The position numbers and the translations under genes are program-made. Under the pieces are notes generated by a model, which was not told where the DNA came from, made no database searches, and saw nothing but the letters and a program-made list of their open reading frames with translations. From a virus: 64,000 nucleotides of DNA. This document shows positions 15,353 through 63,436 of this stretch, piece after piece. Where the stretch lies: positions 80,421-144,420 of the IMG/VR virus record IMGVR_UViG_3300022752_000023, one strand, 5' to 3'. Numbering within the stretch: the first letter of the stretch is position 1; each line of letters begins with the position of its first letter.

Positions 15353-17203
15353 TTATGTGTCGCTATAGACGATTCCGGTGACGCGCAGTACGCCGATTTC
15401 TCCGTAAACGTTGTCTTCCGTACGCCCTATGGTGACGAGCACAGTGTCGCCTTCGTCCACAGAAAACTCATCGCTGTCGCGTTGAATTACGTGGTCAATA
15501 TAGAGGTTTGCGGAAGAATCAAAAATAAGTGGCGCGTCTGTCGTCGCCAGCGCGATACCGTCAGCGCCTGTTCCCGGCAACGGTAATGTTCGGCGCGTCA
15601 TATACAACGACGGCATAACTTTTCGTTGCAGCTGAGTTCCGTCGCGGCCAAACAGTTGCACGCGGATTTTCATTTTCAGGTTATCGCCGAGGTTGCTGCC
15701 CGGCACGTTAAAACGCAGACGAAGCAGCGACGCCTGATTGCCGGGGAAACCAAGATACGGAATATCCATGTATAGCCGCTCAATCGTATCGCTTAGCCGA
15801 ATGATTTGCGGCGAAATTTCGCGCTCCACCAATTGATCGGTGTAATCGATTTTGAGAATACCCTGATGCAGCGTGATCGGGTTTGCTGTAGTTAAATTGA
15901 ATTGTTGTTTTTCTTCTGTTGTCAGCGTACGTGGATTGCTGCGCGACCCGGTTATTGCGATTTGATTTGATAAGGTGAACGCGCCTTCTGTCACCCAGCC
16001 GCGGCGCAGCTGGTGACGATTAATGACGCCTTTCAATGCTTGTCCGCCAGTAACCTCTGCGGCGGCAATCTGCAGATCTAGATTTAACTGTAGGTCGCCG
16101 GTAGATGCGGGATCGTCGGCGCAGTTTGTAATTGCGATTGGGCTGGTGACGTTTGTGGCAGTCGGTGTCGGCTGCGTTTCCGTTGTTGTGCCGTCGACAT
16201 CTTTTACAAGGCTGGTCACCAGACTTCTGTCGTTGCCGACGAGCATGCGCAGGTACACTACCGATACGCGCATTTTTTCGTATCGCGGACATTCGTCGGT
16301 TTCGTTGGGATGTTCTGTCGGCGTTGTAAACGGAACGTCGCCGCCGCAATCGCTCATCCACCAAATTCCATTGGTGTCACAGATTGCAAGCCCCGTCGGC
16401 CCCAGCGGTATTTCTGTGGCGCCGACGTGATTTACACCCTTGTCCCAGAGCATCGCTACCGACTGAATAGGTAGCGGCGGCCACACATTAGAGAGCGCCG
16501 AGTGCTGACTTAAGTTGTAACCAAACACGGCTCCCGCGGGAGCCTTGCCTGCAAACACGCTATTGTTGGCCGGCAGCCAACCGGGATCGTTTTGCGTTGC
16601 GGCAAGCAGCGTTACCAGATCAAATCGATAGTGCGTGTGCTCGTCGATAAAGTCGCGCAGGTGCGGCATAACTACGACGCGCGGAACTGCTGTGCAGCTA
16701 TCTTTCGGCCCCTGCACGTGGCAGACTGTCACAGTTACCGGCGGCTTTTGTTTTACTAGTTTGCCGGCGTCGCTTGCTGACAGGTAATAGCGCCCCGGCG
16801 TAATCGGCCCGTCTACCGCGTTGGCAAGATCGGGAATTTCAACAATGCCGCGCAGCACGATGTCGCCGAGCGTTTCAGAACGCTTGCGCAGGCAGATACC
16901 TACGCAATCCGACGACGGCTGCACCAGCAATGCTTGCGTCTCTGGATCTGCAGCAACGGACGCGAGCGCCGGTTCGTAGCGCTTTTCAACCCAATTCCAG
17001 TACACCGGTTGTCCCGGCAAAACTGAACTGCAAATAGTTGCGTCGCTATCAACGAGAACACGACCTGCGTCGGCGGCATCGAGCCGGTCTTTTAAGTAAT
17101 CTGTGCGGTCTTCAAGCGTGCGGTCTGGGCGTGAAACGACACCAGCCTGTACAGGCTCGCCGGGATTGACGTGTTTAATGTTGTGCAGCCAGTTACCGGA
17201 CAT
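15353..17203 (-). CDS. Tail fibre anchor / proximal fibre protein
   Basis: N-terminal GEPV.AGV.SRP...LEDRTDYLK resembles myophage fibre baseplate-anchor segments; follows baseplate genes. Confidence 0.6.
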   Translation of the reverse strand: MSGNWLHNIKHVNPGEPVQAGVVSRPDRTLEDRTDYLKDRLDAADAGRVLVDSDATICSSVLPGQPVYWNWVEKRYEPALASVAADPETQALLVQPSSDCVGICLRKRSETLGDIVLRGIVEIPDLANAVDGPITPGRYYLSASDAGKLVKQKPPVTVTVCHVQGPKDSCTAVPRVVVMPHLRDFIDEHTHYRFDLVTLLAATQNDPGWLPANNSVFAGKAPAGAVFGYNLSQHSALSNVWPPLPIQSVAMLWDKGVNHVGATEIPLGPTGLAICDTNGIWWMSDCGGDVPFTTPTEHPNETDECPRYEKMRVSVVYLRMLVGNDRSLVTSLVKDVDGTTTETQPTPTATNVTSPIAITNCADDPASTGDLQLNLDLQIAAAEVTGGQALKGVINRHQLRRGWVTEGAFTLSNQIAITGSRSNPRTLTTEEKQQFNLTTANPITLHQGILKIDYTDQLVEREISPQIIRLSDTIERLYMDIPYLGFPGNQASLLRLRFNVPGSNLGDNLKMKIRVQLFGRDGTQLQRKVMPSLYMTRRTLPLPGTGADGIALATTDAPLIFDSSANLYIDHVIQRDSDEFSVDEGDTVLVTIGRTEDNVYGEIGVLRVTGIVYSDT

Positions 17204-17227
17204 CCTTGTCCTCCGGCAGTTAGTTGA

Positions 17228-17860
17228 TTACAGGAACGCGACATCCCACGTGATGCCGATTTGAGATGACGCTTCCTTGGTCACCTGATGCGAACTGTCG
17301 AATACAGTACGCGCAAATATCACGTCTTTCGAGCGATCGTTGAGTGCCGGGGCAGCAACAAGCGCGGCAGCATATACACGACTGTTGTTGGAGCTATTGA
17401 ATTGTTTTTCTTCGCCGGTATACACAACGCGCGCTTCCGAAGTTTGCGCGAAAAACGTCAACTGGTTGCCGGATTGATTGACCGGCAAATTTGCTTCATA
17501 ACCCGTTGAAACACTAAGCGCCGGCTCAATGCTCAACGGTACGCGGATAAAATTGCGCGTGGCGGAATCTATCAACGAGTTGTAGTACGTGATATCGACG
17601 TTACGACCAAAACTCGGCGTAGAAATTTCTAACGATGGGTCGAGATTTTCGTACTCGATGTACATTGCCGAAATGTGGTAATCGAGCCGGTCCGGCTGCC
17701 GCCGATAGCCAAGTTGTTTGGCCGCGATAAATCCCCAGCCATATTGAATTTGATTTGACTGCGAAAACAACGGCAGCTTGAGGCCGGTTTTTTCGTCAAC
17801 GCGCCAAACTGAAACGTGGCCGCGTACGCCAAAAGCGGGGGTAATGTTATCAGCAGCCAT
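17228..17860 (-). CDS. Baseplate fibre-attachment (tail collar-like) protein
   Basis: C-terminal FART.F....VTK.....IGITWDVAF pattern; position after wedge proteins. Confidence 0.5.
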   Translation of the reverse strand: MAADNITPAFGVRGHVSVWRVDEKTGLKLPLFSQSNQIQYGWGFIAAKQLGYRRQPDRLDYHISAMYIEYENLDPSLEISTPSFGRNVDITYYNSLIDSATRNFIRVPLSIEPALSVSTGYEANLPVNQSGNQLTFFAQTSEARVVYTGEEKQFNSSNNSRVYAAALVAAPALNDRSKDVIFARTVFDSSHQVTKEASSQIGITWDVAFL

Positions 17861-17869
17861 GTGTTGTCC

Positions 17870-19591: not shown

Positions 19592-19593
19592 GG

Positions 19594-21315: not shown

Positions 21316-21316
21316 A

Positions 21317-21790: not shown

Positions 21791-21792
21791 TG

Positions 21793-22275: not shown

Positions 22276-22284
22276 GACCGCTCC

Positions 22285-23106: not shown

Positions 23107-23108
23107 GA

Positions 23109-25602: not shown

Positions 25603-25603
25603 G

Positions 25604-26092: not shown

Positions 26093-29000
26093 TTACTTTC
26101 CGTAGTTTGCGCCGGTACCGCCAGCCATGTCGACCGCCGGCCCGTTATCTGGTGTATCTTCCATGCGATGGCCGGTGGCTGCCAGCACGGCCTCTGAGAG
26201 TCCGTGCAGCGTCAACGTACCGTTCACATTCATATCGCCGCCGCCGCCGCCCATGCCGCGCGCCGCTTGCGCGGAATCGTATTGCGAAATTGTGTCGCTA
26301 AGGTAGTTGTACCGGGCTTGGTCTTTGTCATCATCAAAATAGTCGCCGCCGCCGCGGATCCACCAGTGTTTTTTCTTTTTCTTTTCTAGCTCCGCAAGAC
26401 GCTGGCGCATATCTTGCACAGGTGTCTTTGTGTTTGCATCAAGCAACGCCTGTTCTGCAACCATGCGTGCGTGCGGTTTTTCAACAACCTGCGTTACCGA
26501 TCCATCCTCTGCTGTAACATTTACTTTTTTAGCGCCGCCGCGGTGACGAAACGCAGCTTTTTCTGCGTTTGTACCGTAACGTTCGACGTCCTGCTTGGCT
26601 TGCTCTTCTGTATATCCGGCGTTGTACGGGAGAAATACGCGTTCGTGCTGCGGGCGCCCGTCAGCAACGCCGTCTTTTACAGCGCCGCCGCGCAGCTCAC
26701 TAAGTGAAAAAGATTGTCCGGCGGCGTTACCCATCGCGTTATACGGATCATACACCGTGTATTGTTGCTCGTGCGCTTGCGATTTTATTGCGTCGCGGCG
26801 CGTTTGTAGTTCTTTTTTTCGTTCTTTATCTTCTGCGTTGTAATCCAACCAGTTATTTTTATTTCGTTCTTCAATTTGCGCTAACTCGGCGTCAATTTCG
26901 GCAATGGCGTCTGTACGTTTTTGAACGTGAGTTGTTACGGCGGCGGGTTTATCCGGCTGATTAGACGTCGGTGCGTGCCCCGAGCGATTTAGCTGCTGTA
27001 CCTGCTCTGGTGTAATGTTTTGCGACGAAACTCCCGCGCCTGTTTTACTTTCAGAAATGGCGGCATGAATTCGGCGCATGTTTGCAAGATCGTCGTCGGT
27101 CAGCCCTTTCATTTTTTTGACAAGCTCGGGCGGCGCGGACAGCGCTGTTTTAAACTGATCCATTGCGGTTTTTTGCGCTGCCGGATCCATTTTGTTGAAA
27201 AGTTTTACCGCGTCTGCCGCCGGCAGCGTTAGCAGTTGTTGTCTTTTTTCTTTGTCAGCAAACGCGGTCGCAAACGCTGCGCCCGTCGGATCTTTACCTA
27301 CTTCGTCTAATACCGCTTGCTGGTCTGCGGTAACTTTTTCAGTGGCAGAGGCGACACCTTGTCCGTGGGCACGTTTTGCTTCTTCAGCTATTTTTAACGC
27401 ACTGTTTGTTCGGCGCACGATAGCGTCTTTGTCGCTACCTAGAACAGCCGTTAACTGTTTACGCGCTTCCGCCTTGGCTGTCTCTGGATCCATACCCTCC
27501 ATAACAAATTGATCGGTCAACTGCTGCGTCATACGACTTGTCATTATCAGCGCGCGATCTTCATCGGATTTTCCAAGCGTATCGTCCATGTTTACGGCGA
27601 CGTTTGACACGGCGAGGCTGATCTGCCGCAAACGCCGTTTGCGTTGAGTCTCAAACTGCGAATCCGACATACCTTTTGGCCGCAGTTTTTCATACTCGGC
27701 TTTGTCGTAATTCTTTTCCAGCGCGTCGTAAATGTTTTTGCTGGCATCAGAGGCAACCCGATTTGTGGCTGCAGTTCCCCGTTTCTGCGCTTTTGCAACA
27801 TCAACCGGCGTCTGCTCTAAACCAGCGCCAGCCAGTCCGCCAATGTCGCGCGAGCCGCGGAGCGCTTGCGCGATACCACGCGCCTGCTCTTTTTTTTCCT
27901 CTGATAATCCACCCCACCCGTCCCACGCAGCTGACATCTGCTTTTCGAAATCTGTGCTGTCAGCGGCCAGCGCGGCAGAAGCAAACTTTTCGATCTGCGC
28001 AGTTGTTGCGCCGGCGCCCAGCGTCTGCTGCGCCATTGCTTTTGCTGCAACTTGTACGTCTTCAGCTTTACCGGTGTTATAGCCGCGTACAATCAGCTCT
28101 GCGCGGTTACGCTGCTGTTCGTTTTTTGCCCGTTCTGCGTCTGTGCTACCGGCGGCTGTATCTGCTGACTTCATCTTGGCCGCGCCGCGTAACTGCCCCA
28201 ACTCGTCAGCCGTTAGTTTCTTGCCGGGATCGACGCCGGCCATAATTTTGAGTTGCTTGGCTTCGTTTCCGTCCGGGTTCTTTTGCGCCGCGTCAGCCAA
28301 AGTATCGATTTGTTTTTCAGTAACGCTTGCCTGCGTATACATACGCGCTGCCGCTACAAGCCCTTCTTGCATGTCGGGCGCGTAGCTCTGCAGCAGCGAA
28401 TCTTCAGACGCGATTGCAAATAGGCGTTTGAGCGAGCCTTCTTGTATGCCGGCATTTTCGCTGGCTAGGTTTTCTAGTTCGTCGCCAAAGCGTTGCGCAA
28501 GCGTAGATTCTGTTCCGCGCCCCGCGAGTTTGAACCGGGCGGCGCGACGCTTATTCATTTCTTCTTTAACTGTGGCTTCGTCGGTAGCGCCCTGATGGTG
28601 CATTTGTTTATGCGCTTCGATAGACACGCCTGTGCGCTTCTGTGAACTAGCGCTCGTCTCGGAGTACGTCGCTAAAAGAGTGTCGCGGCGGTCTGATTCG
28701 TTTGCGCCGTAAAATGCGTTGAAGTATTGCTCGGCCATACGCTCGGCCGCCGCGCCTTTGAGCCCGCCGCCGGCGCTGCTTTTAAAGTACCGCACCAGCT
28801 CTTCTTTGCCACGCTTTTCAAGTGTCTTTACACGTTCTTCCGGCGTCATGTCGGCTGTTTCGTCCATCATGATGCCGGTCATTTTGGTAGCAAAACTCGT
28901 GGCAAGCGTGCTGTTGCGTGAGTGGAAATCTTCCTCCGACATACCAGACGGTTTTAATTTTTTGAACTCGTCGCTACCCATGCGATCGACAATAGCGCCG

Positions 29001-35676: not shown

Positions 35677-38600
35677 TCAGACAACTAAATGCAGCTCAAT
35701 GTTGTTGAGCGGCGCCGGGACAACAAGATCGAGCACAATTTCGATGCGATCCTTGAGCAGCGGATGAATCTGCAGCGTCCGAATCTCACCAGAAATCAGT
35801 TGCGAACCGAGTTCTTGCGTATTTCCGTTAGTCGAAAGGAAATCAATTACGTTACCCACTTCGTACTCAAGAACCGCAAGCATACCGGGCTGCGCGTTCG
35901 TGCGGCCGATATACGGACGCAGACGACGGTAGAACAGGTACGACATGCTGTCGACGTTGCGCCGGATCATTTCTTCGCGGCGGTTTAGGTCGAGATTGTC
36001 GGTCGTGAGCGCGTGCCGCGTGTGCGGGGTGCCGTCACGATCTTCAGTCACGATCCAGACGCCGGCCTCAGCCATGCGGTTAAGCTGGGTTTCGTTGAGG
36101 TACTTGTAAGAACGCGAGAAGTCGTCGAACCCGGCTACCTCTACGTTCGTCAGCGGCTGGTGGGGCACCACACCGGAGACGAGACCGGCCAGCGCGGCCG
36201 CGAGGTAGTAACCGGGCTGGATCGTGCCGGCTTCGCCGACCTGATCCGGCCACACGGCGCACACGCGGCGGTTCGACAGCGAGCCGCCTTGCTGCGCAAT
36301 GTCTTCAACAATCTCGTTGCGGTTGCGGTTATGCCAGATTTCGACGCGCTGCGGAACTGTAACCGCGGCGTCAGCGCCGGAGTACAGCAGCAGAGTCGAT
36401 TCCGAAATAACTTGATCCACGACGTATTCTTCGTACTGCTCTTCGCCGAAACCGTCGACGGCGTAGTTATAACGAACGATGTCGCCGGGGCGGACATCAT
36501 TCGTGATAAAGTAGCCGTTGCCCGACGTAACGGTAAGCCGCGTATACTGCGTGTTCGTGGCGTTCGGGTCGTCGGCCAGCACGGCAAGAACCGGCTCGTT
36601 AACCGTTTCGCCAAGTACACCTTCGATGCTGACGCCTTCACCAACAACCTTTACGGTCGGAACCGCCTTGAGGGCGAAGAAGCCGGCCTTCCAGTTGTTC
36701 GCGTACTCATTCGACTCGCCGCCGATGTGCGCAGCCCACAGGTTTTGAATCCTGCGGTCAAACGTCATCGGAACAAGGTTGTACAGATCGTCGCGACCCT
36801 TGATGCGCTCCAGCACCTGTACCCACTTGTCGAGATCCGGTCCGAGCGAGCGACCCTCTTCGTCGTACTTCTCGGGATCGGCGACGGCGGTGTACTTTAC
36901 AACGGTGCCGTTGCTGTTGCTGAGCGCCTTGTAAACGCCCCACTTCAGCGGGTTATCGGGATCGAGCTGGCCCTTGATTTGATCGAGATCGGCGACGTCG
37001 CTGATCGAGTTGACCTGATCGGCCAGCTCGGACAGCCACTCACGATACTCGACGTAAACCTTGCCAGACATGACAGGCAGCGGCTGCTCGGCGCCGGCGC
37101 TTGTCCACTCGGGGTGGTAAGCAACGATGCCTTCTTGCACGCAGATCTGCGTATCTTCGTACCAGAAGTTGGTCATCGGGGCGTATCCGATCCGATTCTT
37201 CGAGATCTGGATATCGTCCTTGATGAACAGCTTGAGGTCCATGTCTTCGCCGCTGATCAGCTGGCAGGTTGCTGTGGCTGTAGTGCCTTCCTCGTCGCCC
37301 GGGGCGGCGATCGTGATCGTCGGGGCGGCGGTATAACCAGCGCCACGATTGGTCACGGTGATGGCAACAACCTTACCCGCGTTCTCACCTGTGCCGAGTA
37401 CCGCAACACCTGTGGCAGTTTGATTCTGCACAAGGTTGCCTGTCGGCGCAGAGAACGTAACTGTCGGGGGCGTCACATAGCCGGAACCGGCGTTTGTGAT
37501 GCTAACCGGACCAACCTTGTCGACCGGCGCGCCATCTTGTGTGAGCAGCGAGGTCGGAAGGTCGTCGCGCAGGATGAGCTTGCGCACCGGACCAGCCTTG
37601 CTCGAATTCACTGTGATGTACCACTTGTCACCCTTGCGCAGGCCGTCAACAGCGTAGTTATCTTCTTGATCGGTCGCGCCTGTGAAGCGAACCTTTACGC
37701 CGTTAGTGCCGATCGCTACGCCGACCGCGTTGAGGCCAACGCCGTCGCCGGTAACTTCTGTCGGGCCGGAGAAATCGAGACCCTTGACCGTGCGCACCGT
37801 GATCTCGGGGAGCTGATCCCAGCGACCACCCTTGGTGCACTCGATGACGTAGGTGTCGTTCTTTGCGCCAACGTACTTGGCCAGAATGTCAACCGCGCCG
37901 TTGACGCCGTTCACAGACTCTTCGGTCTGGTAGGGGCCGTCGGCTTCCGATACCGCCTTGACCTTTTCATAGGTCTGGTGAATGTCGAACTTCCACTTCT
38001 GGCCAACGACGAAGTTGTCGTTGCCGGTCGTGGTGAAACGAACCGACAGGCCGCGCGTGCCGACAAAGGTCACGCCGTCAGCATCGTCGAAATCGTTCGG
38101 CTGGATTTCAGCCTGATCGTCGGTGCCGCTGGCCGAAGTGACACGCAGACGGGCAGCGTTGCAACCCGAAATTGTGCTCTTGATAACTTCGACAACGTAC
38201 TCTTCTTCAACGTAGCCGTCGACGAGGCCGTCATAATCGTTGGCGCCTTCGTCTTCGGCTGTCAGCACCGTGACCGCAACAGCGTTATCAACACCCTCGA
38301 TCTGCGTGACGGTTACGTCAACGCCGTTCGGGCTGGTGGCTGTGTAGCTGTCTTGATTGTTAACGTCGGCTGTGGCGGGCAGGATGCGCGACGGAACAAG
38401 ATCGCTCGCGAAACCTGTGACGTATGTCTCAAGCACGGTCTCTTCGCAATCGTTGTCCGCGCTTACAGTGCGAAGCTGCACAACGTCGCCAAGCTGCACG
38501 TCGCGGTCGAGGAACGCACTCGAACGCGGATAAGCCGCGCCGTTCGACTTGAACGACAGCGTGCTGGACTGAATCCAGTTAGTCTTACCGGGAACAGCTG

Positions 38601-38904
38601 TGATCGTCGTGTCGCCTTCGCCCATGTTGTGGACGTAGTACTGCAGCATCGCGTCGTCAACGTAAACCTTTACATAAGGCAGGTCGACAACGGAGCCGGG
38701 TTTACGTTGCGGCCACGGATAGCATGTATCGTTGAGACGATCGTATTGACCGAGAAGCGAGTGCTGCTTCTCGTCTGTATTACCATAGCGGTGAAGGATA
38801 GCGTGCGGACCAGCGATGTGGGCGCGCAGCGGCTCCGTGATCTCCGTGGGGACGATACGGAACTCTTGGAAAACGAGTACTTGCGGTTTTACGTAGCTCG
38901 ACAT
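35677..38904 (-). CDS. Contractile tail sheath protein (1075 aa)
   Basis: MSSYVKPQV.V.QE N-terminus; YYLAAALAG, HQPLTN, RHALTTD, P.P.NNIEL.L C-terminal sheath motifs. Confidence 0.9.
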   Translation of the reverse strand: MSSYVKPQVLVFQEFRIVPTEITEPLRAHIAGPHAILHRYGNTDEKQHSLLGQYDRLNDTCYPWPQRKPGSVVDLPYVKVYVDDAMLQYYVHNMGEGDTTITAVPGKTNWIQSSTLSFKSNGAAYPRSSAFLDRDVQLGDVVQLRTVSADNDCEETVLETYVTGFASDLVPSRILPATADVNNQDSYTATSPNGVDVTVTQIEGVDNAVAVTVLTAEDEGANDYDGLVDGYVEEEYVVEVIKSTISGCNAARLRVTSASGTDDQAEIQPNDFDDADGVTFVGTRGLSVRFTTTGNDNFVVGQKWKFDIHQTYEKVKAVSEADGPYQTEESVNGVNGAVDILAKYVGAKNDTYVIECTKGGRWDQLPEITVRTVKGLDFSGPTEVTGDGVGLNAVGVAIGTNGVKVRFTGATDQEDNYAVDGLRKGDKWYITVNSSKAGPVRKLILRDDLPTSLLTQDGAPVDKVGPVSITNAGSGYVTPPTVTFSAPTGNLVQNQTATGVAVLGTGENAGKVVAITVTNRGAGYTAAPTITIAAPGDEEGTTATATCQLISGEDMDLKLFIKDDIQISKNRIGYAPMTNFWYEDTQICVQEGIVAYHPEWTSAGAEQPLPVMSGKVYVEYREWLSELADQVNSISDVADLDQIKGQLDPDNPLKWGVYKALSNSNGTVVKYTAVADPEKYDEEGRSLGPDLDKWVQVLERIKGRDDLYNLVPMTFDRRIQNLWAAHIGGESNEYANNWKAGFFALKAVPTVKVVGEGVSIEGVLGETVNEPVLAVLADDPNATNTQYTRLTVTSGNGYFITNDVRPGDIVRYNYAVDGFGEEQYEEYVVDQVISESTLLLYSGADAAVTVPQRVEIWHNRNRNEIVEDIAQQGGSLSNRRVCAVWPDQVGEAGTIQPGYYLAAALAGLVSGVVPHQPLTNVEVAGFDDFSRSYKYLNETQLNRMAEAGVWIVTEDRDGTPHTRHALTTDNLDLNRREEMIRRNVDSMSYLFYRRLRPYIGRTNAQPGMLAVLEYEVGNVIDFLSTNGNTQELGSQLISGEIRTLQIHPLLKDRIEIVLDLVVPAPLNNIELHLVV

Positions 38905-38911: not shown

Positions 38912-38923
38912 GGCCTCCGTGCC
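38912..38923 (-). promoter_or_regulatory. CsrA/RsmA-type hairpin on the sheath SD (GGC-ACGGAG-GCC)
   Basis: One of about 10 covarying CANGGANG hairpins at start sites. Confidence 0.6.
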
Positions 38924-41197: not shown

Positions 41198-42190
41198 TCA
41201 ATAGCGAATCCGCAGCGCGTCGGTATAAGCCGAGTACTTATACGTAGACGACACCTCGCCGTAGCCACCTTCGAGGTTAATACTGGCCTTCGTGGCGCGT
41301 ACCCACTCGCGATACGCCTGCCACCGTGCCTGCCCCGCGCGCTCATAGCTCGCTTCTTTGTTCTGATCGTTCACAGACAGCCCCGCCGCCGAATAGTCGA
41401 ACTGGTTGCGGCGGAATTGCTCAGCCACCATCATGAATAGGTTGGCGCAGATCCCCTCCAGCCAGTGATATCTAAACGGAAAAGACTGCGTGTTGTATAC
41501 GGCGTCGATCGGCGGCGGGACTTCGTTCCAGTACATGACAGGGCGCGCAATCGCCAGCGCAATCTCGGCGTCGTCAAACATTAAGTTATCAAGCAAAAAG
41601 CTCTCGCCCGGAGCCGAGTCCCGAAGATGTAGCCGAATCTCCGCAATGCTGGGCGGACCTCCGGGTTGATTAACGCTGGAGAACGTACTGCGCGCAATCA
41701 CCACAGAAAACGTGTTCGAAAAGATCACGCACGGCTGATTACTGCTTTGCGCCGGAACGCTTACAAGCGCCATCTCGCCGTAATAGACACCCGGCACGCT
41801 CGTGGCGTTACTGGACAATGCAACGGCTACTTTGCCGGTTTCCGGCGCTACGATTGTGGCTTCCACCTCGACCGGCGGATTTTGGTTGCCCAGAGAAAGC
41901 TGTTCTTTCAGGCGCAACACGACTTTGAAGTCTTGCGCATTCGTGCAGGCCGTAAGGCTGACCGGCCGGCCTTCGCGGTCGTGCATTGTCCACTCGATCG
42001 TGGCGCACTGACCCTGCGTCAGCGTAATAGCGCGCATCCGCGTTAGGATCGGCTGACCATTGATGCCCGAGATTGGGGCGCTAACTACGTTCTGCCCGCC
42101 GCACGAAACTGGCGTAATTGCTTGTCCGTTTGTATTGCCGTTGCAACACGGCACAATCGGGTGTTCGGCGGGTGTGGCGATGACGACCAT
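41198..42190 (-). CDS. Head-tail adaptor/neck protein with N-terminal BppU-like domain
   Basis: ETGKV.V.L....T..PGVYYGE; IRL.LRD..P..N.L.D, WN..PP, RNQ..YSA.G. Confidence 0.65.
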   Translation of the reverse strand: MVVIATPAEHPIVPCCNGNTNGQAITPVSCGGQNVVSAPISGINGQPILTRMRAITLTQGQCATIEWTMHDREGRPVSLTACTNAQDFKVVLRLKEQLSLGNQNPPVEVEATIVAPETGKVAVALSSNATSVPGVYYGEMALVSVPAQSSNQPCVIFSNTFSVVIARSTFSSVNQPGGPPSIAEIRLHLRDSAPGESFLLDNLMFDDAEIALAIARPVMYWNEVPPPIDAVYNTQSFPFRYHWLEGICANLFMMVAEQFRRNQFDYSAAGLSVNDQNKEASYERAGQARWQAYREWVRATKASINLEGGYGEVSSTYKYSAYTDALRIRY

Positions 42191-42218
42191 GTGAACCTCC
42201 GTGTTACACCGTCATTAT

Positions 42219-42256
42219 AAAGAAAAACGGCTGGCCGCTTACGCAGCCAGCCGTTT
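42219..42256 (-). terminator. Rho-independent terminator after the capsid cluster
   Basis: AAACGGCTGGCTGC-GTAA-GCGGCCAGCCGTTT then TTCTTT (GNRA loop, U tract). Confidence 0.85.
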
Positions 42257-43061: not shown

Positions 43062-43988
43062 TCACTTGAAGTTAACGCGAGCCAGACCGTTGGTATGGCC
43101 GAACGAGCCACCCGAAGTCTGATAGGCGAAGTACTCAAGCATGTAAGCTTCACGACGGATGTACATCGTGGTGGGCTCCAGCTCGTAGTTCTTGCCGATG
43201 AACTTCGGCGACGCGAACATGAACAGCGAATCATCGGGGACAAGATCGCGCTTGATCGTGACGATCCAGCGGCAGTTGAGGAAGTTAGTCTCCGCCCAAC
43301 CGTTCTTGATGATGTCCTGCGAAAAGTCGCCGCCCATTTCGTCACGGCCGAACTTGAGGAGTTCCTTGATCGTGATGTTATTCACGAGGCAGGTTTCAAC
43401 CTCGAAGTGCGACGGCGTGCGGGGCATGACCTTCAGCGCGTCAACAAGGGTCTCACGGGTGATGCCGCCCGAGATCTCCTCGTACTGCACAACGCCGCTG
43501 GCGACGTTGGCAACACCCGGAGTCGGGAGCACGGCGTTGAAGGCGGCAATAAACTTGCCGTCCTCTTCAGCCAGCATGTCCTTGATCATGTTGTCGCTGA
43601 GGACCTGACGGATGTCGATCACGTACGTACGCAGCTCGTCGACGTCCTTCACAGCGCGGGGCGACACGATCCGGTCAAACATGACGCGGTAGCGCGGGCC
43701 ACGGATGTAGAAGTTAATCGGGAGCGTCGCAAACGGAAGCGACACAGCCGCTGGGGAATCGGGCTCCTTGTCCACAACCTTGACGGGCTTGTCAGTGTCA
43801 ACCTGACGGTCAAGCTCGTCGTTGGTGATGGTCAGCGGCGGCATAATCCGCCGGTAGAACCCGTCTTCACGCATTTTGGTGCGCGTGAAGTCGTTAACCG
43901 CGTCGATGGCCTGCTTCTGCATGCCGGGGGTGTCAAGCTGCTCAAAGAGCGTTTCGTTGAGCAGTTGGATCTCTTGCTGAGTGGGCAT
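43062..43988 (-). CDS. Major capsid protein (HK97 fold)
   Basis: R.KMREDGF.RRI.PP, DELRTY.IDIR, EEDGKFI; follows protease, scaffold and decoration; start likely MPTQQ (GGAGG SD). Confidence 0.85.
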   Translation of the reverse strand: MPTQQEIQLLNETLFEQLDTPGMQKQAIDAVNDFTRTKMREDGFYRRIMPPLTITNDELDRQVDTDKPVKVVDKEPDSPAAVSLPFATLPINFYIRGPRYRVMFDRIVSPRAVKDVDELRTYVIDIRQVLSDNMIKDMLAEEDGKFIAAFNAVLPTPGVANVASGVVQYEEISGGITRETLVDALKVMPRTPSHFEVETCLVNNITIKELLKFGRDEMGGDFSQDIIKNGWAETNFLNCRWIVTIKRDLVPDDSLFMFASPKFIGKNYELEPTTMYIRREAYMLEYFAYQTSGGSFGHTNGLARVNFK

Positions 43989-43992: not shown

Positions 43993-44008
43993 GGAACCTC
44001 CATGTTCC
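43993..44008 (-). promoter_or_regulatory. CsrA/RsmA-type hairpin on the MCP SD (GGAAC-AUGGAG-GUUCC)
   Basis: 5-bp stem, ANGGAN hexaloop. Confidence 0.65.
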
Positions 44009-44027: not shown

Positions 44028-44606
44028 TCAGTCGATTGTGGCCGCAGTGCCCGCCGGCAGGTACACGCACCAGAAGGAAAGCGTGTCCACGCCATTGTGG
44101 TTCTTCGACGCGCCACTCGAAACAACACCGCAAACCGGGTTTACGTACTGCACGGCGTTGGCCTTCGTCAGCACACCCTCAACGGCAGCGCCGCCAGTGG
44201 TGGGAGCAGTCAGAAGATCACCGGGGTTGTACGTCACCGCGCTACCGCCGGACGTCTTCACGTACTCGGTGGTGGCGATTTCATAACCACCGGTCGCAAC
44301 AAGACCAGACAGCTTGCCCGAGGGCGAAACCGCTTGGTGCATGAAGTTACCGGCCGCTGTGGTACCCGGATTGCTGACGTCAGCATCCGTCGAACCGTTC
44401 AGCAAGAAGATCGCGACGCCCGTGGCCGACAGACCCGGAACGAACACGTCCTTACCGCCCTCTTTGGCGAGCGTTACGACGCGACCGCGCGGGACATCAT
44501 ACGTGACTGTGCTCGCCAGCTTGGCCGAGTAGTCAAGGGACGCCATATCGAACCAGCCCTTTTTAACGTCAAGGCCGTGTTCAAACATAAGATCAGGAGC
44601 AGGCAT
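44028..44606 (-). CDS. Capsid decoration/cement protein
   Basis: Immediately upstream of MCP; YE..TTEY......YNPGDLLT...G.L.......VCGVVS beta-tulip-like pattern. Confidence 0.65.
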   Translation of the reverse strand: MPAPDLMFEHGLDVKKGWFDMASLDYSAKLASTVTYDVPRGRVVTLAKEGGKDVFVPGLSATGVAIFLLNGSTDADVSNPGTTAAGNFMHQAVSPSGKLSGLVATGGYEIATTEYVKTSGGSAVTYNPGDLLTAPTTGGAAVEGVLTKANAVQYVNPVCGVVSSGASKNHNGVDTLSFWCVYLPAGTAATID

Positions 44607-44661
44607 TGTTAGACCTCCGTGTCTTTCTCAATTGGAAACGTGTTCCGTAGGGGGGACGAAC

Positions 44662-45087
44662 TCAGGTAGTGGGCGGGTTAAGACCAAGGCCCGTAAACAG
44701 CTTTACGTCGGAAGCCTTGAGGCGACCATCGCGGGCACCCACATACCCGCTCGTCAGACTGGTCGTCGGGTCGTAGCTGGCGGCCTTTGTGGCAACCGGC
44801 GTACCCAGACGAGCCATTTCAGCTGCGTTTTTATGCGCAGCTAATTTGATAACAAGTTCCATCGTGCGCACCGGATCTTGCAGGGCGGCGGCAAGCGCCT
44901 CCTTCTGGTGCGCCTCGATCCGCTCGTTTTCCACGCACGCCTTGACGGCTTCGGGGATCAGGTGAGCCAGCTTTTCGCTGACTTCAACCTGCGCCTTTTC
45001 GGCGGCGGCGGCTTTGGTCATCGCCGCATCGGAATAACCGATGTAGTCGATGATCTTATGTACGAGCGCGTTATTTTCGGTAGACAT
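44662..45087 (-). CDS. Head-internal protein with K-x-A motifs
   Basis: KAAA, KLAH, KEAL, KLAA, KNAA, KAAS. Confidence 0.75.
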   Translation of the reverse strand: MSTENNALVHKIIDYIGYSDAAMTKAAAAEKAQVEVSEKLAHLIPEAVKACVENERIEAHQKEALAAALQDPVRTMELVIKLAAHKNAAEMARLGTPVATKAASYDPTTSLTSGYVGARDGRLKASDVKLFTGLGLNPPTT

Positions 45088-45103
45088 TAAAACCTCCGTG
45101 TGA

Positions 45104-46441
45104 TCAACGATTCACGAGTTCGAGAACGTGCTGCTTCATCATGTCCCGCAGCTGGCGCGAACGCTTTGTGCGGGCTTCTTTAACTTGGAACCTGCCAGCA
45201 CGCTTAAAGTTTACAACAGCGCGACCGATGGCGTCTAAATCTTTAGCGGCAGCCATCTTCGGTTCTTCCATCGGCGGAGCAGCTTCAGGGGCGGGAGCGC
45301 CACCAGCAGCGTCGCCGCCGTCGGCGCCAGACAGCGCCTGCAGCAGAGCTTCCGGCGGAATGCCAAGTTCTTCTAACGCCATCGCCAGCTCTTGCACGGC
45401 CTCGTCTTCCGACGGTTCGCCGCCGCCTACAGCAGCCGGGTCCATATCGCCGCCGCCTTCGGCGCCCATCATGGCTTCGAGCCCGGCGGGCGCGGCGTCA
45501 GCAGCCGGAGCGTCGCTGGCGCCAGAAGCAGCGTCTTCCGGCGCGGAGTGGTCCTCGCCTTCAGTGGCCTCTTCGGTCGGATCAGCGGCCGCGGCTTTGG
45601 AATTCAGAAAACCGATGAACAGGTCAGCCATCTCGTCGGCTTCGCGAATCGTGTTAGCGCACACCTCACGAACAGACGCCTCAGCGGCTTCTTTGTTCAT
45701 GCCGAGCTGCGCAGCAAGCTCGTAGCCAGCCTTGAACGCGGCAGCCTTACCCTCGCGAAGAGCAGCAAGATCAGAACCCTCGATCTTGCCGTTATCGTTT
45801 ACGTCGAGCTTGTGCTGGTCGCCTTTGAGGTTGCTGCCGGCGTGCTCGCTTTTCTCTTCAGCGGGGGTTTCTTTTTTTTCTTCGGCCTTTTCTTTCAGAA
45901 AAGCCGGCATCTCAGCCGCCTTCTCGTTGTTCAGTTTGCTAGTGCCGAAGTTAATGAGGTTGGCCAGAATGTCGTTACCAAGGGTGCCGGCACGTTCGCG
46001 GGCTTCCTTGAACGTAACCGAGCTGTACTTCTCGCCGTCATTGGCCTTGACCGGCGACGACGTGCCCGGGTCATCCTTATCACCCTTGAAATCTTTTTCA
46101 TTGGCCGGATCTTCGCCGGTCGCTTTGGCAGAGACACCGATGTTCGTCTGCACTTCGTCTTGACGACCTTCTTGCGACATCTCCGGTGTGTTGTCTACAG
46201 CAAGAGCGCCCTGCTGCTTCTTGATGTCAGCCTCATACTCGCTTGCGCGCGCACCAGTCGAAGCGTTCTGCACGCCATTGTCGGCGCTAGTCGTCGGGTG
46301 CGAGGAGGCGCCTTGGTATCCGCCCGGATCAGCAGGCACGGGGCCGGCAGACTTCTCAGCCGCAGTCTTTACAGGACTCTGCGCAATCTCAGCGGCAAGA
46401 GCATTAAGTTGATCGAACAGTGAACGTTGCATCCGTGCCAT
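45104..46441 (-). CDS. Capsid scaffolding protein
   Basis: Acidic, Ala/Gly/Pro-rich and disordered; between protease and MCP; many K-x-A sites. Confidence 0.65.
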   Translation of the reverse strand: MARMQRSLFDQLNALAAEIAQSPVKTAAEKSAGPVPADPGGYQGASSHPTTSADNGVQNASTGARASEYEADIKKQQGALAVDNTPEMSQEGRQDEVQTNIGVSAKATGEDPANEKDFKGDKDDPGTSSPVKANDGEKYSSVTFKEARERAGTLGNDILANLINFGTSKLNNEKAAEMPAFLKEKAEEKKETPAEEKSEHAGSNLKGDQHKLDVNDNGKIEGSDLAALREGKAAAFKAGYELAAQLGMNKEAAEASVREVCANTIREADEMADLFIGFLNSKAAAADPTEEATEGEDHSAPEDAASGASDAPAADAAPAGLEAMMGAEGGGDMDPAAVGGGEPSEDEAVQELAMALEELGIPPEALLQALSGADGGDAAGGAPAPEAAPPMEEPKMAAAKDLDAIGRAVVNFKRAGRFQVKEARTKRSRQLRDMMKQHVLELVNR

Positions 46442-46459
46442 GACTTTCTCCTTTGGGGT

Positions 46460-46477
46460 CTAATCGTTTCCGATTAG
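46460..46477 (-). other. GNRA-capped hairpin in the scaffold leader (CUAAUCG-GAAA-CGAUUAG)
   Basis: Perfect 7-bp stem in the short intergenic gap. Confidence 0.6.
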
Positions 46478-51638: not shown

Positions 51639-54020
51639 TTAGGCGTTAGCGATAGCGCCAAGATCGATATCCTGCGCGGCTTCTTCGGGATACGGCTCGA
51701 TGGTCTTCTGCTTGAGGAACAGAATGACGTCGCCCAGCATTTCAAACGCATTGCGCAGCGAGTCTTCTAATTCCGGCATATCAGCTTTGCCGTAACGTTC
51801 GGCAAACCGGTCACCGTGCCAATAGAACATAAACAAGATGCGGCCTAGTTTATCGAGGCCCTTGGTCAGCTCGCCCATGTAACGATCGACCAGCGAGTCG
51901 TCTCGCACGGCGCGCAGCATGGCGCCCACCATTGCCGTGTCGAACACTTCGCGCTGCCCACTCTGCGCGGCGTCGATGACAGAGCGAACGTCGCGCTGAT
52001 CGAGAAGCGTGTTGGGGTTGTACACGCTGCGGTCAGTTTGGCTGGCGCTCATGCCCGGCACCTGTACAGCGGTGTCGATACCGAGCTGTGTCGGGACGCT
52101 TGTGCCCATGATGCTCTCGCCGCCCATAACCGGACCCGGATCTGTGGGCGCCGACGGGGCGCCGTTGATCATCATCGGACCGCCGTACGGATCGGCATAC
52201 TTAACGCGGCACTCAAACTTGCGCTTGGCGGCCGCTTGCTTCAGGATCTCGCGCGCTGCTTCTTCGCGCAGCCCGTGATGTTCAACAAGCGTTACAAGCG
52301 CTTTGATCGGGCTGAGTCCGGCTTCTTTGTTAATAGTTACCGATGTGCCGTTGTGGTAAACGGTTAGCGCGGCGGTTTTTTGCATAAGTGCCAGCTGTGC
52401 GTCGACGAGGTTACCGGGCTGCAGGGCTGGCGGATCACTCTCGCCGCATCCACAAGCGCCTTGATCTTCGGCCGCCTCGGCGTCGTCTTCGCCCTTGGTG
52501 ACCTTGAGCAGCTTGAAACCTTCTGGCACAAAGATGTCGCCCATGCTCGCGCGCAGGCTGGCGCCCTTCTTGCCGTTCAAGTGAATACGCACGCCGTCGC
52601 GCCATTTGTCGTAGTTCAACGGGTCGGTGTAGCAGCACGCGCCAATCGAACCCTTGGGCGGATACTTCGAATGGTCTTCAAGATGCACCTCATAGACTGT
52701 GCTGCCGTTGCTGTCGCCATACTCTTTGATCACGCGAAACGGCGCTGTCGTGTCGCCACGTTTGCTGAGCGCAATGTATCGCGCGTCTTTGCTCGGCACA
52801 CTATTGGCTTCTGGCAAGCCGTCGAACCACTTGTCAAATTCCTCGCCCCCGATTCGGGCCAGAGCAAAAACTTGGTCGGCACGAGTGTTGAGCCAGTTAC
52901 GGGCCCCATCAACGCGCACCACAGTGATAAAGTTTTCGCGTTTGGCGGCGCCTTGCGGGTGTACAGCGACGTAGCAGCGCTCGATGTTGCCCGGCTTGAC
53001 GAGGATTTCGTACAAGCCGCTTTCAGTCGGGTTGAATAGCTTTTTCTCGACCTGAATGTGATACGGGATGGAGACATTGTCGCGATCGCGCTCGTCTTGA
53101 ATTAGAACGCCGTCGCGCAGTAGCTTCTCCTGATCTTCTTCGCTGTAACCGACAGGAGCTTTAGTTTGCACCGTCACGTCGTACGTAATTACTTTAAGGC
53201 CCTTTGCCGCAGCGGGTTCTTTCGGGGCTTCGGATAGCACACTGGCAATTTTTGTGTTGGCCGCGTCTTCACGAAACTTCGCCATGACCATCGCTTCGCG
53301 CACCACGTCCAGCCCGTGAAACTCGTCGATGGCTTTGGCCAGCTGCGGCGCGTGTTGGCACGTTTTAATCAACGTGGCAATTACTTCCAGCCCGGCTTGC
53401 TTTAAAAAGGTCGGCAGGTCTAGCGCTGCGCCGATTTCCTTAAAAGTTTGCGCGGTGTTTAGCGTGGCGCTCTTGGCGAGAGCCGGCATTGCCGCCGTCA
53501 TCATTTCCTTGAGCGTGGGCTGCGCCGAACCAAACTTAGCCGGGCTGCGCGAAAGCTGCGTGAAGTCGGGCTGGCGTTGCCCCATATTCGATAGGTTGCG
53601 CTCGACGCCGCTGCCCAGAATGTTGGGTTTGCGGTTAATGAGGTAATTGATCCAATTTTCCTTGAGCGGCACGAACATGTCCTGATTTTTGATATACAGG
53701 AGTTCGTGACCCTTGAGGTCGCCGTTGAGAAAAAACACCGGCGCGTACAGCCAGTTGGAACCAACCTTGAACGCGAAAACGCCGACCGCTTTGGTGTTTT
53801 CTCGGTTGCGATCGAGCAGCTGGAAGCCGATTTCGTGATCTAGCAGCTTGGGGGCCGAATCGCGCAGGTAGGCGTGCGCCAGATTGCTAAACGACTGCTC
53901 AAAAGAGGTGTCGTCGCCCTTGCCGCCTAAATCGGCATATTTGGTCTGAGTGCGGTCATACGACTTCAGCACATTCAGCCAATGCTTAACAGACGACTCT
54001 TTCGCTTTTTTGTTGTACAC
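51639..54020 (-). CDS. Large head-associated protein with K-x-A motifs
   Basis: Likely GTG start at 54020 (GGAGG SD); KYAD twice, KSAT, KQAG, KIAS, KTAA, KQAA. Confidence 0.75.
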   Translation of the reverse strand: MYNKKAKESSVKHWLNVLKSYDRTQTKYADLGGKGDDTSFEQSFSNLAHAYLRDSAPKLLDHEIGFQLLDRNRENTKAVGVFAFKVGSNWLYAPVFFLNGDLKGHELLYIKNQDMFVPLKENWINYLINRKPNILGSGVERNLSNMGQRQPDFTQLSRSPAKFGSAQPTLKEMMTAAMPALAKSATLNTAQTFKEIGAALDLPTFLKQAGLEVIATLIKTCQHAPQLAKAIDEFHGLDVVREAMVMAKFREDAANTKIASVLSEAPKEPAAAKGLKVITYDVTVQTKAPVGYSEEDQEKLLRDGVLIQDERDRDNVSIPYHIQVEKKLFNPTESGLYEILVKPGNIERCYVAVHPQGAAKRENFITVVRVDGARNWLNTRADQVFALARIGGEEFDKWFDGLPEANSVPSKDARYIALSKRGDTTAPFRVIKEYGDSNGSTVYEVHLEDHSKYPPKGSIGACCYTDPLNYDKWRDGVRIHLNGKKGASLRASMGDIFVPEGFKLLKVTKGEDDAEAAEDQGACGCGESDPPALQPGNLVDAQLALMQKTAALTVYHNGTSVTINKEAGLSPIKALVTLVEHHGLREEAAREILKQAAAKRKFECRVKYADPYGGPMMINGAPSAPTDPGPVMGGESIMGTSVPTQLGIDTAVQVPGMSASQTDRSVYNPNTLLDQRDVRSVIDAAQSGQREVFDTAMVGAMLRAVRDDSLVDRYMGELTKGLDKLGRILFMFYWHGDRFAERYGKADMPELEDSLRNAFEMLGDVILFLKQKTIEPYPEEAAQDIDLGAIANA

Positions 54021-54101
54021 GGCCAGCCTCCATGCTGCGCTCAAAATTAGGGGCAATATTAATTTACTGCCCCGAAGTCCTTATATCCTACAAAAACGGG
54101 T

Positions 54102-55982: not shown

Positions 55983-55983
55983 G

Positions 55984-56223
55984 TCACGGCGTCCACATTA
56001 TTTTCTGCATCGACTTCGGCTGAAACTCTGACACAACAACCGTTTTGTCGACACCCAGCGCGCGTAAAAGCGAATGAAACTCCTTTTCGCCGACTGTCGC
56101 ATAAACAACAGCTTCGTCAACCTGAATAGCAACAAATAGCGGATTGCCGAGATCGTCTTCGACAATCACGCTATGTGCTTTTTTTTCGGTCGGCTGCAGG
56201 CTGTGTTGCGTTTTAACCAGCAT
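55984..56223 (-). CDS. Hypothetical protein (79 aa) between the RNAP parts
   Basis: Packed ORF, overlaps upstream gene. Confidence 0.65.
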   Translation of the reverse strand: MLVKTQHSLQPTEKKAHSVIVEDDLGNPLFVAIQVDEAVVYATVGEKEFHSLLRALGVDKTVVVSEFQPKSMQKIMWTP

Positions 56224-56941
56224 TGTCCGCTATGCTCCGAATCATCGCGGCGATAGCGTTTGCTTTAATCTGCATTTGTGTCGGCGCGTTCGGATTAGAG
56301 ACGCTGGGACCAAACGGCCGGCCGATTGAAGAAGCCGATTTTTCAGCGCGATCCCACCACGCGGCCTTCGACGGATCAGCCTCGGGTGGCGGAGCGTTCG
56401 GCGGCATTGGTCCGCCCGGAGGCATTGGTCCGCCCGGCGGTTGCATTCCACCCTGCGCGTTCGGGTCTTGCGGCGGCGGCGCCATCGGGCCGCCGGGAAG
56501 CGCTGTTTCAGCCGGCGGCGCGCCAGTCGTACCGGGGGGTAACACCAGAGACTCCGGCGGCACCTGAACACCCATCGCGTTCATGATGGCGGTAAGTTGC
56601 TGCTGCATGTTGTACAAACGATAGTCGAGCATTTGCATCATTTGCTCGGGTTTAAGTTTTTGCTGCGCGCCAGCAGGGGCTGCGCCCGGAGCGGCGGGTG
56701 CGGCGGGCGCTGCGGGAGGTGCAGCGGGAGGCGCCATTCCCATAGCCGCAGGATCCACTGGCGGTGCAGCTGCTGCAGCAACAGCAGACGGATCGGCCGG
56801 CGGAACAGCCCCCATGGCGGCTGGATCAACCGGCGGAGCACCACCAGCAGCAGCGGGATCCACCGCCGCTCCGGGCACTAATGCGGATTTTTCAAAGCGC
56901 GCCTTCGCCAGCGCAATGAGTTCGGGGTTTACCGTGAACAT
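56213..56941 (-). CDS. Pro/Ala-rich low-complexity protein between the RNAP parts
   Basis: GGAGG SD; PPVDPAAMG repeats, central helix, EKSA twice. Confidence 0.8.
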   Translation of the reverse strand: MFTVNPELIALAKARFEKSALVPGAAVDPAAAGGAPPVDPAAMGAVPPADPSAVAAAAAPPVDPAAMGMAPPAAPPAAPAAPAAPGAAPAGAQQKLKPEQMMQMLDYRLYNMQQQLTAIMNAMGVQVPPESLVLPPGTTGAPPAETALPGGPMAPPPQDPNAQGGMQPPGGPMPPGGPMPPNAPPPEADPSKAAWWDRAEKSASSIGRPFGPSVSNPNAPTQMQIKANAIAAMIRSIADNAG

Positions 56942-56961
56942 ACAACCTCCATGTTTAACGC

Positions 56962-61365: not shown

Positions 61366-61368
61366 GGC

Positions 61369-62220: not shown

Positions 62221-62232
62221 TGTTTGTGCTCA

Positions 62233-62580
62233 CTAATGTTTGGGCGGAATCATGCCGTACACCTGCGCCCACTCCAACCAGACCCGAAAATGTTTATGTT
62301 CGTCGTCCCAGTTGTCCGTGCGCTTTAACAGCCGATACCAGCCGTTCACCATCTTATCATTTATATCGTCAAATTCTGCCTTCTGAGTAGGATCCCACAG
62401 CTCGAACATACGAGACTTGAAATCATACTGTAAATCTATATTTTCCAGCTCATCTTGCTTCAGATCGGGGCGGTGACCCGCGCCAATTACCGGAAAGCCG
62501 TCGAGCGTGCCGGGCCAGTTCAATCGGGCGTTATTGTGCTGCGTGCCGCCAATTTCGCCGTGATACTTGCGAAGGCTCAC
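62233..62580 (-). CDS. Hypothetical protein (115 aa)
   Basis: Packed ORF. Confidence 0.7.
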   Translation of the reverse strand: MSLRKYHGEIGGTQHNNARLNWPGTLDGFPVIGAGHRPDLKQDELENIDLQYDFKSRMFELWDPTQKAEFDDINDKMVNGWYRLLKRTDNWDDEHKHFRVWLEWAQVYGMIPPKH

Positions 62581-62583
62581 AAA

Positions 62584-62940
62584 TTACCTTTCTGGACGGT
62601 AAAGACGTAACTTCCTGTTGGTCTTCGCCCGCGCAGCGTACGCTTTGTAGGCAGCAGCCAGTTCGCGGGCTTTGATATCTTCTTCGTCGACGTCTGGTTC
62701 GGTCATCTTACCGGCGACGTGGCCTGCCAAGCCGCCACCGACGGTCGCGAGCATGAGTGGCGCATACGCAATATTCCCGAGCGCCCGCCACGAGTCGCCA
62801 AGCGCCGGCAGTTCCAGCGCAGCTTTTACAAACGCATCCGCGGCGTCGAGACGTTGCACAAGAGCCGGACCGGTCAGCTGCTCTTCGGCGCACCGTTGAA
62901 GAAAACCCAGCTTAAAAGCTTCTTTTTCAGTGACGTCCAT
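62584..62940 (-). CDS. Small glycine-zipper protein with K-x-A sites
   Basis: EKEAFKLGF, FVKAA, VGGGLAGHVAG. Confidence 0.7.
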   Translation of the reverse strand: MDVTEKEAFKLGFLQRCAEEQLTGPALVQRLDAADAFVKAALELPALGDSWRALGNIAYAPLMLATVGGGLAGHVAGKMTEPDVDEEDIKARELAAAYKAYAARAKTNRKLRLYRPER

Positions 62941-62941
62941 G

Positions 62942-63436
62942 TCAGAAATCTCCGGGCAAAATAAGTTTCTTTGTGGGCGCGCCGACTGTAAAGTCGGGTG
63001 TTACATGCTTGCCGGTATCCTTACCAAGCGGTAACGCGCCCGGCAGCGTCGATGTAAAGTTAGCGCCACTGGCCAAAGATATCTTACTCTTTCTGCCCGG
63101 TCGGTGCCGCATAAACCACGCGTCGACTACCGGATCATTACGGTCGCCCTGCTCTTTCGCTTCTTTTGTGACCGCAATCATATCCTCGATTGCCCGCTGT
63201 AAAGCGGCCCGGTCCGCCGATAACCACGCGGCTTTAGCCGGATTTTCGGCCGCTATCATGCGCAGCCGTTTGGCCTCGTCGCTGATGGCCTGCGCCCGCT
63301 GTAAAAATTCTTTACGGGTGAGGACGAAAAATTCGCCGGTCTCTTCGTCATGCAGGCAGATAAAGCCATTTTTGGCGTAAAACTTCAGACTGCCGTATGT
63401 ATAACACTTTCCGGTCGTTCCGTGTCCGGCGGGCAT
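62942..63436 (-). CDS. Hypothetical protein (164 aa)
   Basis: Packed ORF, AAGGTG SD. Confidence 0.7.
   Translation of the reverse strand: MPAGHGTTGKCYTYGSLKFYAKNGFICLHDEETGEFFVLTRKEFLQRAQAISDEAKRLRMIAAENPAKAAWLSADRAALQRAIEDMIAVTKEAKEQGDRNDPVVDAWFMRHRPGRKSKISLASGANFTSTLPGALPLGKDTGKHVTPDFTVGAPTKKLILPGDF

Follow-up and report, generated by a model that had tools for sequence, protein, structure and literature searches.

What, if anything, reads the small hairpins that lie on the Shine-Dalgarno (SD) sequences and start codons of a phage's own genes? The question arises from a 64,000-nucleotide stretch of viral DNA, called here the window, which covers positions 80421-144420 of the 144,420-bp IMG/VR record IMGVR_UViG_3300022752_000023 and in which the initial annotation described ten such hairpins as a CsrA/RsmA-type translational regulon. 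We found that the hairpins exist, are enriched and covary, have a CsrA-specific geometry and co-occur with an intact csrA gene. Judging from sequence, it is likely (at a rough probability of 0.6) that these operators are bound by the phage CsrA, which would thereby repress or gate translation of the phage's own mRNAs. The proposed regulon appears partly supported by the phage csrA, the loop geometry, the covariation and the enrichment only in csrA-carrying relatives; the binding by phage CsrA, its repressive effect and the mode of relief are what we infer.

The record has a G+C content of 54%, is about 71% complete according to CheckV and holds nearly all of its genes on the minus strand. Its source is an uncultured freshwater phage of about 200 kb, and the window is the virion-gene half of it. 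A DNA search of cultured phages with the region of the major capsid protein (MCP) gene gave zero matches, and the closest cultured capsid proteins, from Salmonella phage Arash and some Vibrio phages, are 27-28% identical. Related loci in IMG/VR number at least 64; many of their contigs are about 200 kb long, and some have terminal repeats. Twelve relatives were fetched as whole or near-whole genomes, and orthologous gene starts were located in 64 related loci.

Hairpins at translation starts

All ten hairpin sequences listed in the initial annotation are found on the minus strand exactly as written. Over the whole record the word A[CT]GGAGG occurs 16 times on the coding strand and once on the other strand, and the coding-strand copies are preceded by C in 12 of 16 cases and flanked by at least two pairs in 11 of 16. 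The coding strand of the 144-kb record has 69 AYGGAG hexaloops, and 14 of these are enclosed by at least three directly flanking Watson-Crick pairs (background 1.7%, binomial p 1e-11), as against 0 of 21 on the non-coding strand. The initial annotation had proposed a comparison with SD-matched controls; this was done by swapping the 3' flanks of ANGGAN sites beside candidate start codons in 2000 permutations, and 16 stems were observed where 2.65 +/- 1.57 were expected and the permutation maximum was 9.

A short hairpin marks the translation start of about 16 mRNAs of the phage, and the window contains eight that are credible. In 14 hairpins the loop starts 11-16 nt 5' of the start codon, and six of these 14 lie outside the window. 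The class of ten held for eight sites, five of them strong and three moderate, and did not hold for the sites at 45092 and 46429. The sites are:

43993-44008, minus strand: hairpin GGAAC-AUGGAG-GUUCC, SD of the MCP gene in the hexaloop; strong
44611-44624, minus strand: hairpin AGAC-ACGGAG-GUCU, SD of gene 44028-44606, which adjoins the MCP gene; strong
38912-38923, minus strand: hairpin GGC-ACGGAG-GCC, SD of the 1075-amino-acid sheath-like gene 35677-38904; strong
54024-54037, minus strand: hairpin CAGC-AUGGAG-GCUG, SD of a gene of 793 amino acids starting with GUG at 54020; strong
17198-17211, minus strand: hairpin GGAC-AAGGAU-GUCC, at the start of gene 15353-17203; strong
42194-42205, minus strand: hairpin AAC-ACGGAG-GUU, SD of gene 41198-42190; moderate
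56944-56955, minus strand: hairpin AAC-AUGGAG-GUU, SD of gene 56213-56941; moderate
62931-62944, minus strand: hairpin UGAC-AUGGAC-GUCA, loop positions 1-3 being the AUG of gene 62584-62940; moderate
45092-45101, minus strand: AC-ACGGAG-GU, 2-bp stem at the SD of gene 44662-45087; not supported
46429-46438, minus strand: GC-ACGGAU-GC, just past the AUG of gene 45104-46441; not supported
3180, 14193, 16842, 46992, 71964 and 72706, same genome outside the window: hairpins with the SD in the loop

The genes with hairpins outside the window include, according to Pfam and PHROGs, one with an HD domain (below the Pfam cut-off), a SEC-C-motif protein and a GNAT protein, and the set of hairpin genes is thus not purely structural. 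The gene names given in the initial annotation fared unevenly. For the MCP there is a homologue annotated as a capsid protein, and for the sheath there are weak PHROG tail-sheath matches only, while Pfam and PHROGs gave zero matches for the genes called fibre anchor, neck, decoration and scaffold.

The stems are weak by themselves. When the minimum free energy (MFE) folds of the 50-56-nt contexts of the ten sites were compared with those of shuffles, none of the ten folded better than its own shuffles (z from -0.95 to +2.15), and in six of the ten the MFE fold did not contain the hexaloop hairpin. Such weak stems fit a protein-clamped element better than a self-stable structure.

Conservation and covariation of the stems

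Among the 64 loci, hairpins are retained at the MCP gene, gene 44028-44606, the sheath-like gene and the gene starting at 54020, with stem substitutions that compensate for each other. In 33 distinct sequences of the MCP leader the closing C-G pair is invariant (33/33), 86% of the cells in the stem comparison are paired, and compensatory cells number 25 against 6.5 in shuffles. The covariation score was reached by 0 of 500 shuffles and peaks sharply at the proposed register (slide 0). Four of the five pairs of the MCP stem change on both sides, giving for example GGAC/GTCC, AGAAC/GTTCT, AAGAC/GTCTT, GCAC/GTGC and GATC/GATC. In the leader of gene 44028-44606, compared over about 30 relatives, pairing holds in 85% of the cells, and compensatory cells number 24 (8.4 in shuffles), with stem variants such as AAGAC/GTCTT, TAGAC/GTCTA, AAAC/GTTT and GTGAAC/GTTCAC. 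Genes that have a plain AAGGAG or no clear SD in this genome are also without a hairpin in the orthologues of the relatives.

The other strong sites behave in a similar way. The MCP hairpin, with the AUG of gene 43062-43988 lying 15 nt past the loop start, and the sheath hairpin are both present in the MFE fold, and the latter appears in relatives with the stems AGGC/GCCT, TCAGC/GCTGA and GAC/GTC. In the orthologues found for the gene at 54020 the hairpin is GCCGC-ATGGAG-GTGGC, whose stem of 5 bp differs from the one here and includes one G-U pair. At 17198 the AUG takes up the last two loop positions (5-6) and extends by one base into the 3' arm, and an upstream GGAGG SD overlaps the 5' arm; the sequence is the same in the relatives G001 and G009 and compensated in the orthologue of G012 (TGCC-AAGGAT-GGCA), and a 7-bp outer stem competes with the hairpin in the MFE fold.

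At the moderate sites the record of conservation is shorter. At 42194 only the closest relatives retain the stem or compensate for changes in it (TAC/GTA), many others having a broken stem or none, and the MFE fold prolongs the helix across the AUG. Directly upstream there is a strong intrinsic terminator (42225-42256, minus strand), which has a 14-bp stem (-27.6 kcal/mol, z -5.8), and after it a TATAAT-like box, so that the hairpin would sit near the 5' end of a new transcript. At 56944, G009 has a different 5-bp stem (TTTAC-ATGGAG-GTAAA) and G001 has no stem, and the hairpin at 62931 is kept only in G001 (TGAC-ATGGAT-GTCA) and not in more distant relatives.

The two remaining sites were rejected as members of the class. 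At 45092 the relatives do not keep the 2-bp stem and the conserved part is GGAGGTTT, which is probably a plain strong SD. The site at 46429 is probably not a member either, as its 2 bp lie in the conserved codons for MARMQR, are broken in several relatives and are not found in the MFE fold.

Loop geometry and registers

The shape of the hairpins was examined in six pooled csrA-carrying genomes, with loops of 3-10 nt, every register around GGA and stems of at least 4 bp. A clear surplus was found for one shape alone, a loop of six nucleotides in which GGA fills positions 3-5 (163 hairpins against 87 expected). The runners-up were much weaker, an NGGA tetraloop with 122 against 89 and an 8-nt loop with 116 against 96, and the tetraloop surplus probably arises when ANGGAU hairpins of the hexaloop type are counted with one more A-U pair. 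In the surplus hairpins loop position 1 is A in 61% of cases against 23% of all GGA sites, position 2 is any base, position 6 is G or U, and the closing pair is mostly C-G. The known RsmE/CsrA element is (A/U)CANGGANG(U/A), and the hcnA hairpin in the RsmE structure is reportedly UUC-ACGGAU-GAA. By their letters, the hairpins appear to match this CsrA/RsmE geometry specifically.

Counted over nine csrA-carrying genomes, the hairpins are placed on the translation start in three registers. In the first, the GGAG of the SD is in the loop and the start codon is 11-16 nt past the loop start (165 observed, 21.5 expected). In the second, to which 17198 belongs, the 5' arm takes in part of an AGGAGG SD, and the AUG lies across the loop and 3' arm (32 against 8.3), and in the third, which includes 62931, the AUG occupies loop positions 1-3 (41 against 21.2). 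The GGA that the second and third registers place in this loop is not part of the SD, and selection for a plain SD does not account for it. The initial annotation had argued in this way from three sites without GGAGG; the argument stands for two registers at the level of the clade, and it does not reach significance in this genome alone, where only the first register is significant (11 against 1.3), and fails for 46429.

It has to be asked at this point whether the hairpins need CsrA at all. They could instead present the SD, stabilise 5' ends or serve some other phage factor, with the link to csrA being a coincidence of lineage. An SD held single-stranded in a loop could aid ribosome binding, and some of the hairpins, such as that at 42194, lie just past terminator- or promoter-like sites. 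However, SD presentation predicts neither a single loop length and register nor the A at loop position 1, and it does not predict the two registers with a non-SD GGA in the loop. The stems are also too weak for RNA stabilisation, and a search for a RegA-type repressor found none. We therefore hold this explanation to be unlikely, though it gains something from the distribution of csrA described below.

The phage csrA gene

The initial annotation had suggested that the genome be searched for csrA, and an intact phage csrA was found 2.2 kb beyond the left edge of the window. The open reading frame encodes 96 amino acids (G000:C1:77923-78212, minus strand; L001:1360-1650), and its 78063-78212 part matches Pfam PF02599 with 71.3 bits against a cut-off of 27 (E 1e-20), over model positions 1-50 and with no internal stops, as the one clear match in the record. 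Homologues of the protein are named 'carbon storage regulator' by their sources, and its best solved match is RsmE (PDB 2jpp). The residues of CsrA that contact RNA are in strands beta1 and beta5, namely L2/L4, R6, R44 and I/L47 in E. coli numbering. When the phage protein was aligned to RsmE and E. coli CsrA, L2, L4, R6, K7, I42, R44, E46 and L47 were in place, and L2, R6, K7, R44, E46 and L47 are invariant in nine phage homologues, whereas H43 is replaced by V and E45 by G.

After the domain of 50 amino acids the phage CsrA has a low-complexity tail. The CsrA proteins of the relatives are either of the 96-amino-acid type or a form of 64-66 amino acids with a different C-terminal tail ending in ...NGLERQ(S/T)(S/T). 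In this genome the same NGLERQ(S/T)(S/T) ending can be read in another frame, and an open reading frame of 82 amino acids overlaps the csrA tail; the arrangement may be a frame-shifted C-terminus or a pair of overlapping genes.

The nearest cellular CsrA proteins found are from metagenome-assembled genomes of Planctomycetota (Pirellulales, Planctomycetaceae), some on contigs of megabase size, with 50-66% identity over the domain, in a search whose patterns bias which genomes could turn up. The similarity is at most a hint to the host lineage or to the origin of the gene.

Co-occurrence of csrA and the hairpins

Among the relatives with a completeness of at least 90%, 15 of 18 carry csrA. In all nine csrA-carrying genomes tested, this one included, ANGGAN hairpins are enriched on the coding strand, with p from 3e-3 (G010, the weakest) to 2e-27. 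All nine also exceed their flank-swap controls, the count in G010 (10 against 5.3) lying within the permutation range. In contrast, three complete genomes without csrA (G017, G018 and G019) are at expectation in every test and register, and their MCP leaders have no hairpin.

These genomes bear on the simplest alternative, that the pattern is a chance by-product of GGAGG SD sites. Chance accounts for 45092 and 46429. For the core set it is already refuted by the flank-swap and register controls, by the compensatory changes across about 30 relatives each in the MCP gene and its neighbour, and by the csrA-less genomes, which also use GGAG-type sites yet show no enrichment. As an account of the whole pattern it is very improbable.

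The same distribution matters for the possibility that the CsrA of the host reads the hairpins, either as a gate that follows host physiology or as a sponge for host CsrA, while the phage csrA acts mainly on host mRNAs such as those of defence or metabolism. The hairpins fit the general CsrA/RsmE consensus, and with 50-66% identity over the domain a host protein could share the specificity of the phage one. Host-directed roles have also been proposed for phage CsrA (PMC8450108, PMC11879866). However, the enrichment is found only in genomes that carry csrA and is absent from the three complete relatives without it, a link that a host-only reader would not predict unless the csrA-less phages infect hosts without CsrA. 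A host reader seems to us a doubtful explanation for these reasons.

Several observations weigh against the reading that phage CsrA acts on these sites. No more than one or two evolutionary events may underlie the link of csrA to the hairpins, because G017 and G018 form one clade and the tree is unreliable for G019; in the MCP tree that clade was the only usable one, with G011, G019 and G022 placed unreliably. This, together with the enriched hairpins of G015, also speaks for hairpins independent of CsrA: G015 has 16 hairpins at start sites against 6.5 expected, and csrA was not found in its 84%-complete contig, so that either the contig lacks the part with the gene or the genome keeps the hairpins with no csrA. 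The cultured csrA phages Vibrio 431E45.1 and Pseudomonas phi297 were scanned and showed no comparable hairpin enrichment, which makes the cis-regulon a feature of this clade and not of phage csrA generally. In the first register, the preference for a closing C-G pair would already follow from a GGAGG SD with pairing after it. Furthermore, most leaders have a single hairpin, while two or more GGA sites are the rule in CsrA targets that have been studied well. Finally, self-repression of the most highly expressed genes needs relief, and the searches for FliW, for clustered GGA and for Csr/Rsm RNAs in Rfam found none.

As to the number of sites, the GGA of the SD and that of the loop are about 8 nt apart in the second register. 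Tandem GGA-loop hairpins with different stems were seen upstream of the same gene of 214-234 amino acids in two relatives (G001, reverse strand, 116835/116862; G009, 155300/155318), and these are a candidate dual-site operator.

How the phage CsrA might act

If phage CsrA is the reader, its dimer would clamp each hairpin in the way RsmE clamps the SD hairpin of hcnA, and the clamped hairpin would occlude the SD or AUG and so lower or gate initiation. Repression by occlusion is favoured because in each of the three registers the SD or AUG is buried or covered, and none is laid out like a known CsrA activation site. Relief would probably come from the very abundant late mRNAs, which might titrate CsrA; we propose titration because neither a sponge RNA nor a FliW-type antagonist was found. 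Five relatives with complete or near-complete genomes were searched for FliW (PF02623), with no match at E <= 1. The GGA-repeat small RNA that the initial annotation had suggested looking for did not turn up as a clustered GGA sponge: at most two hairpins lie within 120 nt, except for three over about 125 nt in G013, the density of ANGGA in this genome peaks at 6 per 250 nt, and a scan of the window at Rfam gathering thresholds found no Csr/Rsm RNA.

In its fuller form, the proposal is that the phage has a private CsrA regulon on 10-20% of its genes, in three registers and with capsid and sheath among them, which would set the timing or dosage of virion proteins independently of host Csr signalling; to this we would give about even odds.

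Comparison with known systems

The system resembles RsmE-hcnA (2jpp) and E. coli CsrA-glgC in the protein family, in the C-G-closed A-N-G-G-A-N hexaloop over the SD and in the expected occlusion of the ribosome binding site. It differs from them in that both the proposed regulator and its targets are viral, the targets being the phage's own virion genes and others, and in having mostly one hairpin per leader, two extra registers with the start codon in the hairpin and no CsrB/RsmZ-type sponge that we could find. In Bacillus subtilis, CsrA represses the major structural subunit flagellin through an SD hairpin, and control of capsid and sheath would be a natural parallel to this, but the partner switch by FliW has no counterpart here, as FliW was not found in the five relatives. 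The likeness to RegA of T4 and to the coat-replicase operator of MS2 and Qbeta would be that of a phage repressor acting at several initiation regions, with an operator hairpin holding the SD or AUG, although the protein fold is unrelated and late structural genes are among the targets, not early or replicase genes.

CsrA is among the best-studied post-transcriptional regulators of bacteria, and phage copies of it are known. Phage csrA genes have been documented, many of them in surveys (PMC8450108; PMC7366521), and knock-down of the phage CsrA homologue gp28 of PTXU04 leads to smaller plaques (PMC11879866). The role published for phage CsrA is manipulation of the host, such as repression of CRISPR-Cas, and no targets in phage genomes have been described there (PMC8450108; PMC11879866). 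The csrA gene studied here is phage-borne like those reported from PTXU04 (gp28), from Pseudomonas phages of the F116/phi297 type, from Burkholderia phage DC1 and from IMG/VR surveys, whereas the putative targets in the phage genome have no counterpart in those reports, and CsrA operators on phage structural mRNAs did not appear in any report that our literature searches turned up. A clade with the regulator and with visible covarying operators on its own capsid, sheath and other mRNAs offers a concrete and directly testable hypothesis, for which the csrA-less relatives serve as natural controls. If it is true, the CsrA system would here be used in cis by a virus for the first time, and a new type of phage translational control would stand beside T4 RegA and the coat-protein operators of RNA phages.

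Other observations

Sequences of the capsid region of relatives are present in metatranscriptome runs from freshwater, lake and wastewater. One such contig spans a variant MCP hairpin, AAGAC-ATGGAG-GTCTT, and was not used as evidence, as RNA ends and expression levels are not readable from such contigs and DNA carry-over is possible.

Some further elements lie beside the sites described above. Near the terminator at 42225-42256 the relatives retain a GTATACT-like word; as a general promoter-like motif GTATACT was rejected for being too rare. At 63014-63025 on the minus strand, 82 nt before the hairpin at 62931, the upstream coding region contains GGT-AAGGAT-ACC, which is either a second site or chance. 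Another site, ACT-ACGGAA-AGT at 26095-26106, is not conserved in G001 or G009 and is probably chance. Just upstream of the AAAGGAG site of gene 45104-46441 there is a 7-bp hairpin, CUAAUCG-GAAA-CGAUUAG (46455-46477, minus strand, z -2.6); the relatives keep a hairpin there with quite different stems, and it is not a GGA-loop element. Outside the window, the hairpin of the GNAT gene (TGGTC-ACGGAG-GACCA, G000:C1 at about 71964-72010) lies about 20 nt past the apparent 3' end of a tRNA-like RNA (GGTTCGACTCCC...). The sole Rfam family in the window is the DUF3800-VIII RNA (RF03075) at 793-868 on the minus strand, with 44.8 bits against a gathering score of 40.2.

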